A stretch of DNA of 64,000 nt from Escherichia coli (GCF_003334315.1 NZ_QOWR01000013.1), one strand, 5' to 3'. Positions 52,317-59,724 are shown, counted from the first letter of the stretch. The notes: generated from the sequence alone by a model not told the origin. Numbers and translations: made by a program.

Positions 52317-52454
52317 CGGACTACCTCAATATAAAGCTTTATATATGAATGATTGTTTCATACTCCAGGAAGACGGTAAACCACTCTCTGCAGGGCATTA
52401 CACACTAATAACAATTGAATAACTCACAGTTATGTGCAGAGTTATAAACAGAGG

Positions 52455-52815
52455 AAGGGGTGGATAGCCGTTTTTATTCACCTTTTCTGTGGATAGAGTT
52501 GTGAAGAACTACGGAATTACTACGGGAAAACCCGGAGCATTCTGAATAAGCCCGATATAGACATTTTAAAATATTCATTATCAGTCAATGCATTACATGT
52601 AATTTTAGTAATGAAAAAGAGTAATTCGTGACCCAGGTCACACCTCTCATTTACGGGTTGGCGAAAGATCAACCAATGCCGTATTTATCCACAGAATGTG
52701 CCACTAAGTTAAGCACTGAACCACTAAAAACTGGAGTTTCGTCGCACGTCAAGGCTGTAAATGGAAACAGTAGTGGAGGTTTTTCACAGTTATCCCAGCT
52801 TTCTGTGGATAACAT
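52455..52815. promoter_or_regulatory. DnaA-box cluster in the rppH-mutH intergenic region (DARS2-like DnaA-reactivating sequence)
   Basis: Perfect DnaA 9-mers TTATCCACA (52685-52693) and TGTGGATAA (52804-52812) plus degenerate boxes at 52461-52469 and 52488-52496, in an AT-rich spacer; location matches my recollection of DARS2. Confidence 0.6.
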
Positions 52816-52822
52816 GGTGTAA
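52676..52822 (+). CDS. ygdT: Small hypothetical protein, 48 aa (ygdT-like), overlapping the DnaA-box cluster
   Basis: ATG 52676 to stop 52822 (MPYLSTECATKLSTEPLKTGVSS...); the ORF track extends it to a GTG at 52628; coding status uncertain. Confidence 0.4.
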   Translation: MPYLSTECATKLSTEPLKTGVSSHVKAVNGNSSGGFSQLSQLSVDNMV

Positions 52823-53000
52823 GATCCTGTTTATTTTCAGTGACCAGATTTGGAAAACCCGTTGCAGTGTTGCGCAACTCGATTACCGGCAACCTAAAAA
52901 GCAATATAAATCAGAGAATTGAACAACGCATGTGGAAAAAGTTACACTGCGAATATTCGGCACATAATTGCTGTTTGTTTTTTAATCAAGGTATCATGAC

Positions 53001-59440: not shown

Positions 59441-59528
59441 AAAAAAAACCTGCGCATCCGCGCAGGTTGGTGCAAGAGACAGGGTACGAAGAGCGTACCG
59501 AATAATCTCACCAATCAATACCTCTGGG
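59441..59528 (-). ncRNA. omrA: OmrA small RNA (OmpR-regulated, Hfq-dependent)
   Basis: Minus strand reads CCCAGAGGTATTGATTGGTGAGATTATTCGGTACGCTCTTCGTACCCTGTCTCTTGCACCAACCTGCGCGGATGCGCAGG plus T8. Confidence 0.92.
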
Positions 59529-59642: not shown

Positions 59643-59724
59643 AAAAAAAACCTGCGCATCTGCGCAGGCTGGTGTAATTCATGTGCTCAACCCGAAGTTG
59701 ACTTCACCTATCAATACCTCTGGG
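59643..59724 (-). ncRNA. omrB: OmrB small RNA (paralog of OmrA)
   Basis: Minus strand reads CCCAGAGGTATTGATAGGTGAAGTCAACTTCGGGTTGAGCACATGAATTACACCAGCCTGCGCAGATGCGCAGG plus T8; shares 5' seed and 3' terminator with OmrA. Confidence 0.92.

Follow-up and report, generated by a model that had tools for sequence, protein, structure and literature searches.

[quoted passage not shown] DARS1, in the bioD–uvrB spacer, has the same core architecture, in which a plus-strand DnaA box is followed after 5 bp by a minus-strand box and after a further 3 bp by another minus-strand box, and the two cores are identical at 24 of 35 positions. DARS1 is 101 bp long, has higher-affinity boxes I and II and acts independently of IHF and Fis, whereas the core boxes of DARS2 are weak and the element relies on IHF, Fis and negative supercoiling (PMC11724364). 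Like DARS2, datA consists of clustered DnaA boxes and an IHF site, does not code for protein and alters the nucleotide state of DnaA at set times in the cell cycle, but it works in the opposite direction by promoting ATP hydrolysis on DnaA, arranges its boxes differently and is Fis-independent. The DnaA-oligomerization region of oriC also combines high- and low-affinity boxes with IHF and Fis sites, and the head-to-tail ATP-DnaA oligomer at box V of DARS2 resembles oriC assemblies (PMC8682772). In contrast to oriC, however, DARS2 lacks a duplex-unwinding element and does not start replication, and the head-to-head box pair is specific to DARS elements.

Release of ADP from ADP-DnaA has been published for a sequence identical to the one described here (PMC4245941, PMC6868365, PMC11724364). 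Gln208 mediates a head-to-head contact between the DnaA protomers on boxes I and II, from which ADP is released, with head-to-tail support from box III (PMC6868365); the weak core boxes work only with IHF bound to IBS1-2, Fis bound to FBS2-3 and negatively supercoiled DNA (PMC4245941, PMC11724364); and box V nucleates ATP-DnaA oligomers over FBS2-5 that evict Fis, providing negative feedback (PMC8682772). Mapped onto our coordinates, ADP-DnaA would bind the low-affinity core boxes I, II and III (52474-52508), where protomers on the opposed boxes I and II would meet head-to-head via their AAA+ domains and lose ADP while box III stabilized the assembly head-to-tail. IHF at IBS1-2 (52567-95) would bend the DNA so that Fis at FBS2-3 (52664-84) could act on the core complex, and apo-DnaA would then depart and rebind ATP. 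As ATP-DnaA accumulated, it would oligomerize from box V (52685) over FBS2-5 and displace Fis, switching DARS2 off.

Our locus lies in a 64-kb stretch of E. coli DNA (the window), within the 684-bp spacer (52317-53000) between rppH (ygpD/nudH) and mutH, a location established from the open reading frames and from the K-12 annotation. Of the flanking genes, ptsP and rppH are on the minus strand and mutH is on the plus strand. The locus is collinear with that of K-12 MG1655 (subtracting 2,916,661 from an NC_000913.3 coordinate gives the window position); the MG1655 spacer differs from ours at two bases, 52330 and 52346, both outside DARS2, and that of E. coli strain W5-6 is 100% identical. The spacer was found in 5425 of 5426 complete E. 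coli genomes, with ‘ygdT’ as the sole annotated feature beneath it, and an Rfam scan of the spacer returned no RNA family. About 6.5 kb away, the tandem small-RNA genes OmrA/OmrB (59441-59528 and 59643-59724, both on the minus strand; Rfam RF00079, 96.6 and 86.1 bits) are known genes that confirm a K-12-like gene order downstream of mutH.

The features of the locus are as follows; positions of individual FBS sites derive from oligonucleotide boundaries and consensus scans rather than from published figures.

52442-52450, plus strand: upstream DnaA-box-like site, TTATAAACA, one mismatch
52451-52905, plus strand: 455-bp DARS2 fragment, bounded by primers MutH-4 and MutH-2
52474-52482, plus strand: core box I, TTATTCACC, one mismatch, low-affinity, head-to-head with box II
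52488-52496, minus strand: core box II, CTATCCACA, one mismatch
52500-52508, minus strand: core box III, TTCTTCACA, one mismatch, head-to-tail with box II
52541-52549, minus strand: box IV, TTATTCAGA, one mismatch, flanked by the subDnaAboxIV primers Ksh-30/31
52567-52579, plus strand: IBS1 (IHF), TAAAATATTCATT, one mismatch to TAANNNNTTGATW
52583-52595, minus strand: IBS2 (IHF), TAATGCATTGACT, one mismatch to TAANNNNTTGATW
within 52611-52641, unstranded: FBS1 (Fis), oligonucleotide FIS-1U, perfect Fis consensus at 52619-52633
52664-52684, unstranded: essential 21-mer with FBS2-3, exactly the bases omitted by the delta-21 primers MutH-24/25
52669-52815, minus strand: ygdT open reading frame, 48 codons, b4610 in K-12, RefSeq CDS
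52670-52709, unstranded: FBS4-5 region, oligonucleotide F45U, overlapping box V
52685-52693, plus strand: box V, perfect TTATCCACA, flanked by the subDnaAboxV primers Ksh-32/33
52748-52775, unstranded: block A, GTCAAGGCTGTAAATGGAAACAGTAGTG, in the right half
52790-52824, plus strand: box VI module, TTATCCCAG, 5 bp, TGTGGATAA (box VI, 52804-12), 3 bp, GGTGTAAGA
52825-52840, unstranded: block B, TCCTGTTTATTTTCAG, directly after the GATC at 52823-52826
52853-52883, unstranded: FBS6 (Fis), oligonucleotide FIS-4U, in a poorly conserved region

Several lines of evidence identify this cluster almost certainly as DARS2, a non-coding nucleoprotein machine that would convert ADP-DnaA to ATP-DnaA before each replication initiation. 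The oligonucleotides with which DARS2 was delimited and mutated appear in Table S1 of Kasho 2014 (PMC4245941), and all 22 of the native oligonucleotide segments tested (22/22) match the spacer exactly and once. The native part of MutH-4, GAGGAAGGGGTGGATAGCC, lies at 52451-52469 and the reverse complement of MutH-2, CGGCAACCTAAAAAGCAAT, at 52887-52905, so that the two primers are exactly 455 bp apart, the published length of DARS2. Primers for the delta-Core, delta-21, box IV, V and VI substitution, IBS1-2 and FBS1-6 constructs also match the window exactly, and oligonucleotide mapping places the right end of minimal DARS2 at 52683. Moreover, an independent laboratory designed deletion primers, MutH-9/10, that flank this same 35-bp core (Frimodt-Moller 2015, PMC4585315). 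The DARS2 described in K-12 (Fujimitsu 2009; Kasho 2014; Miyoshi 2021; Kasho 2025) is the same 455 bp, without a sequence difference, and shares core boxes I–III, IBS1-2, FBS1-6, boxes IV–VI and the rppH–mutH spacer. None of our results contradicts the identification. DARS2 is already known and well studied; recognizing it from raw sequence was correct and adds nothing new.

The initial annotation, made from the sequence alone, had called the position ‘DARS2-like’, which understates the case given the exact oligonucleotide matches across the 455-bp fragment. The alignment to the DARS2 core with its IHF and Fis sites that it had proposed as a check bears the assignment out, with published oligonucleotides mapping exactly and consensus sites present, and the 684-bp AT-rich spacer it described is indeed there (52317-53000, 38.9% GC compared with 51.7% for the 64-kb window). 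Both perfect 9-mers that it placed at 52685 and 52804 are DnaA boxes, namely V (52685-52693, plus strand) and VI (52804-52812, where TGTGGATAA is TTATCCACA on the minus strand), and TTATCCACA occurs nowhere else in the window. Its degenerate box at 52488 is real and corresponds to box II. For its other degenerate box, given as 52461, a sequence, GGTGGATAG, does exist at 52459-52467, but it carries two mismatches, is not among the named boxes and falls where conservation is poor (identity 0.475 across 41 species). That annotation lacked core boxes I (52474-82) and III (52500-08) as well as box IV (52541-49).

The internal organization also agrees with published descriptions. Boxes I–III occupy 52474-52508, the 35 bp deleted by the delta-Core primers MutH-14/15, with boxes I and II opposed across the 5-bp gap stated in PMC6868365, and box III in the same orientation as box II after 3 bp. 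A ‘TTCTTCACAactCTATCCACA’ double box listed in a DnaA ChIP-seq paper (PMC11317965) contains box II. Between the core and the Fis sites are two IHF 13-mers separated by 3 bp, the published IBS1–IBS2 spacing (PMC4245941); the subIBS1-2 primers Ksh-16/19 flank 52572-52588, and a PciI site (ACATGT, 52595-600) corresponds to the site described as ‘beside the IBS’ (PMC11724364). The 21-mer, which is required for DARS2 (Kasho 2014, PMC4245941), contains a Fis consensus with one mismatch (52667-81) and is followed directly by consensus box V, and the published FBS2-5 fragment (~52652-52709) additionally contains three low-affinity boxes, V-a, V-b and V-c (PMC8682772). Box IV, FBS1 and FBS6 have each been reported to be dispensable. 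Within FBS1, a GTGACC-TGG-GTCAC palindrome (52627-52642) scores as terminator-like on the minus strand; this palindrome (GTGACC/GGTCAC) is probably a protein site rather than a terminator because it coincides with a perfect symmetric Fis consensus.

To compare the locus among species, we anchored loci on RppH rather than on the boxes, which avoids circularity, and collected 80 from Enterobacterales, Vibrionaceae, Shewanella and Ferrimonas (without Salmonella, Shigella or Klebsiella). In 66 of the 80, mutH is the divergent neighbor of rppH. A core template (plus-strand box, 5 bp, minus-strand box, 3 bp, minus-strand box; ≤4 mismatches), which as a positive control recovers the DARS1 core from the K-12 bioD–uvrB spacer, was found ~155-170 bp from rppH in ~60 of these 66 species. 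The initial annotation had made its reading hang on conservation of the boxes in orthologous spacers, and they are conserved, from the core in ~60/66 species to box V at an identity of 0.997 across the 41 species of our Enterobacterales alignment. In that alignment, identity to E. coli is 0.91 for the core, where the mismatches of boxes I and III are themselves conserved, 0.71 for the 21-mer with FBS2-3, 0.55 for the IBS sites, 0.415 for the poorly conserved box IV and 0.31-0.54 for unconstrained stretches.

Spacing is conserved too. Almost no insertions or deletions interrupt the alignment between 52473 and 52860 in the 41 Enterobacterales, and the distances from box I to box V (211 bp) and from box V to box VI (119 bp) are each exact in 38 of 42 Enterobacterales, while the flanks vary (153-228 bp from rppH to box I, 180-365 bp from box VI to mutH). 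The V–VI distance is also 118-120 bp in Vibrionaceae and Shewanella, and is thus 119 ± 1 bp across three orders; the I–V distance shifts to 216-220 and 231 bp in those two groups. Across Enterobacterales, Vibrionaceae and Shewanella, conservation holds for the core, box V and box VI as well as for their spacing. In Morganellaceae (Photorhabdus, Xenorhabdus, Providencia and Arsenophonus; loci L030, L038, L039, L044, L047-L051, L053 and L080), mutH is not beside rppH, and upstream of rppH we found neither a DARS2 core nor a perfect DnaA box, which implies that DARS2 either moved with mutH or was lost. In Candidatus Photodesmus blepharus (L067), a luminous symbiont with a reduced genome, the rppH–mutH spacer is 153 bp and has no recognizable DARS2 core, which looks like loss of DARS2.

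The half of the element to the right of the 21-mer is conserved to a similar degree, with its blocks (0.89 for block A, 0.88 for the box VI module and 0.83 for block B across the 41 species) matching the core. Block A stands out from its flanks (0.48-0.54), and scanning and inspection gave no good match in it to the DnaA, IHF or Fis consensus; Vibrionaceae have CCCTGTTnATTCAT(C/A)CA at the equivalent position. The box VI module, in which the subDnaAboxVI primers Ksh-34/35 flank 52804-52812, has the DARS-core architecture and constitutes a second triple box. It ranks second in the window for agreement with the DARS-core template (5 mismatches, compared with ≥7 elsewhere), is identical to the DARS1 core at 25 of 35 positions and is conserved in Enterobacterales and Shewanella, whereas Vibrionaceae keep only box VI. 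Nevertheless, the module is not an autonomous DARS, because a delta-Core plasmid retains it yet is inactive (PMC4245941). The spacer has just two GATC sites, one within the essential 21-mer (52667-52670; conserved in 35/41 Enterobacterales) and one directly after the box VI module (52823-52826; 38/41), and most Vibrionaceae have a GATC within ~30 bp of box VI; a link of these sites to Dam or SeqA is possible.

Conservation extends to the left as well. A box-like site with ≤1 mismatch is present exactly 32 bp upstream of box I in 57 of 66 species, five Vibrio species having a perfect box there. In our locus this site (52442-50) falls just beyond the left edge of the 455-bp fragment used in all published plasmid work, is missing from the pOA61 plasmid fragment and could be part of DARS2 or of rppH promoter control. 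A second conserved element, GAATAACTCACAG, lies nearby at 52419-52431.

A scan for promoters and terminators found a single sigma-70-like site in the spacer (GTTACA, 16 bp, CATAAT; 52941-52968, plus strand), ~30 bp before the mutH ATG. This poorly conserved sequence is a plausible candidate for the mutH promoter, well downstream of DARS2. Blocks A and B were also considered as −35/−10 elements, a reading that was dropped after inspection of both strands by eye gave weak matches only.

Could the boxes instead be a chance cluster in an AT-rich spacer? AT-rich DNA does raise the local expectation, and across the 64-kb window as a whole 9-mer counts are at the chance level, with no enrichment of DnaA boxes. 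Counting matches to TTWTNCACA with ≤1 mismatch, however, the cluster has 10 sites in 500 bp where the window rate predicts 0.8 (Poisson P ~1e-8), and composition-matched shuffles of the spacer itself averaged 1.8 sites, with 1 of 2000 reaching 10. A chance origin is also at odds with the conservation of boxes and spacing across three bacterial orders and with three published DnaA ChIP-seq peaks of 78-, 199- and 213-fold at NC_000913.2 positions 2969124, 2969306 and 2969501 (PMC11317965), which correspond to window positions ~52463, ~52645 and ~52840 (approximate, because the NC_000913.3 offset was applied to NC_000913.2 coordinates). IHF and Fis ChIP have been published as well (PMC4245941). 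We regard this explanation, vanishingly improbable in any case, as already refuted by the conservation and binding data. A different challenge comes from ygdT, which could be a genuine small-protein gene under its own selection, with the DnaA boxes tolerated or incidental. In its favor, RefSeq treats ygdT as a CDS in nearly every E. coli genome, and the frame has an ATG, a stop codon and a Shine–Dalgarno-like AGGA 9 nt upstream of the ATG in E. coli and encodes an identical protein in E. albertii. Its frame covers most of the essential 21-mer (FBS2-3), FBS4-5, box V, block A and box VI; whereas one perfect box had initially been placed inside it, both V and VI are inside, with box VI forming codons 2-4. 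When orthologous segments from the 41 Enterobacterales spacers were translated, however, the frame was intact only in Escherichia. In 37 species the segment measures exactly 147 nt; internal stops interrupt it in 25 of them, the ATG survives in 14 and the TGA stop in 4. Citrobacter, Enterobacter, Pseudescherichia and Superficieibacter are among the genera with broken frames. The three codon positions are about equally diverse (0.347/0.358/0.299), without the third-position excess seen for rppH in the same genomes (0.066/0.019/0.481). Even the close match to E. albertii, with 1 of 147 nt differing compared with 18% and 35% of four-fold sites in rppH and mutH, respectively, covers all codon positions, and in the most divergent Escherichia locus (L002) 4 of 6 substitutions within ygdT are non-synonymous (position-by-position counts for L001 and L002 were kept within ygdT, and L003 was excluded because a 1-bp indel shifts its register). 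YgdT has no Pfam or NCBIfam match even at permissive thresholds, and a literature search for its product returned no relevant paper, the hits being the YGDT polymerase motif or a typographical variant of YdgT, the Hha paralogue. Stretches of the peptide that look conserved (LSTE.WD, FTALT and SVDK) are box VI, block A and box V read in frame. An independently selected ygdT gene is thus very improbable. The 147-nt segment almost never gains or loses a base and yet carries no codon signal, which points to constraint on the DNA, as the initial annotation had suspected; the frame is broken in most other genera while motifs and spacing are invariant, and the comparison of synonymous with non-synonymous change across relatives that it had called for reveals no protein-level purifying selection. 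We infer that the open reading frame is incidental or very young and that its conservation within Escherichia is a by-product of selection on DNA. Some translation in Escherichia may nonetheless occur, given the ATG and the AGGA 9 nt upstream.

Accepting the locus as DARS2 leaves the role of its right half to be weighed. Boxes V and VI, with the rest of this half, could serve mainly as a DnaA operator or titration site for mutH (or rppH), with reactivation confined to the left half. The passage of PMC5835720 that cites Roth and Messer 1998 has the locus first isolated as a high-affinity DnaA-binding ‘mutH promoter’ fragment, and box VI is just 46-103 bp from the mutH ATG in Vibrionaceae. The ChIP-seq signal also rises from 78 at the core to 199 near box V and 213 near box VI; the peak near box VI, where the same study lists a ‘CTTACACCAtgTTATCCACA’ box pair, ties with datA, is just under oriC at 218 and is among the strongest listed (PMC11317965). 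Against these observations, box V has a demonstrated role within DARS2 in evicting Fis (PMC8682772), the sole mutH promoter-like site is >125 bp downstream of box VI, and the scan found no convincing promoter in the right half. Moreover, box VI lies at a variable distance from mutH in Enterobacterales but at fixed distances from box V and the core, which ties box VI to the geometry of DARS2 rather than to the start of mutH, and the literature searched contained no published test of DnaA regulating mutH. We therefore consider a mainly operator or titration role unlikely.

The right half has been reported to be dispensable for plasmid-driven over-initiation (PMC4245941), a description based on multicopy-plasmid assays. 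Judged from sequence comparison, the chances seem even that 52685-52840 is instead a second conserved functional module of DARS2, comprising box V, a 119 ± 1 bp spacer with block A, a DARS1-like triple box at box VI and an adjacent GATC. The indel-free geometry maintained from E. coli to Vibrio and Shewanella suggests a phased DnaA–DnaA assembly or a V–VI loop, which would tune DARS2 timing when the element is present in chromosomal single copy. Such tuning might operate through DnaA sequestration, through a reset linked to SeqA/Dam once the fork has passed, or through a connection with transcription of mutH or rppH. The fixed V–VI spacing, the triple box at box VI and the upstream box did not appear in the literature that could be searched (the founding paper, Fujimitsu 2009, was outside its reach), and a full-text search for mentions of box VI in connection with DARS2 was empty. 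With its conserved architecture, the right half offers a modest new lead that leaves the classification of the locus unchanged.

These results bear on how variation at the locus is read. The RefSeq record for this DNA annotates a ‘ygdT’ protein but not DARS2, and because comparison among species argues against ygdT being a conserved gene, mutations recorded as ‘ygdT’ variants should be read as DARS2 variants. More broadly, the deep conservation of the right half leads to specific hypotheses about DARS2, centered on its fixed spacing, block A, the box VI module and the GATC sites.
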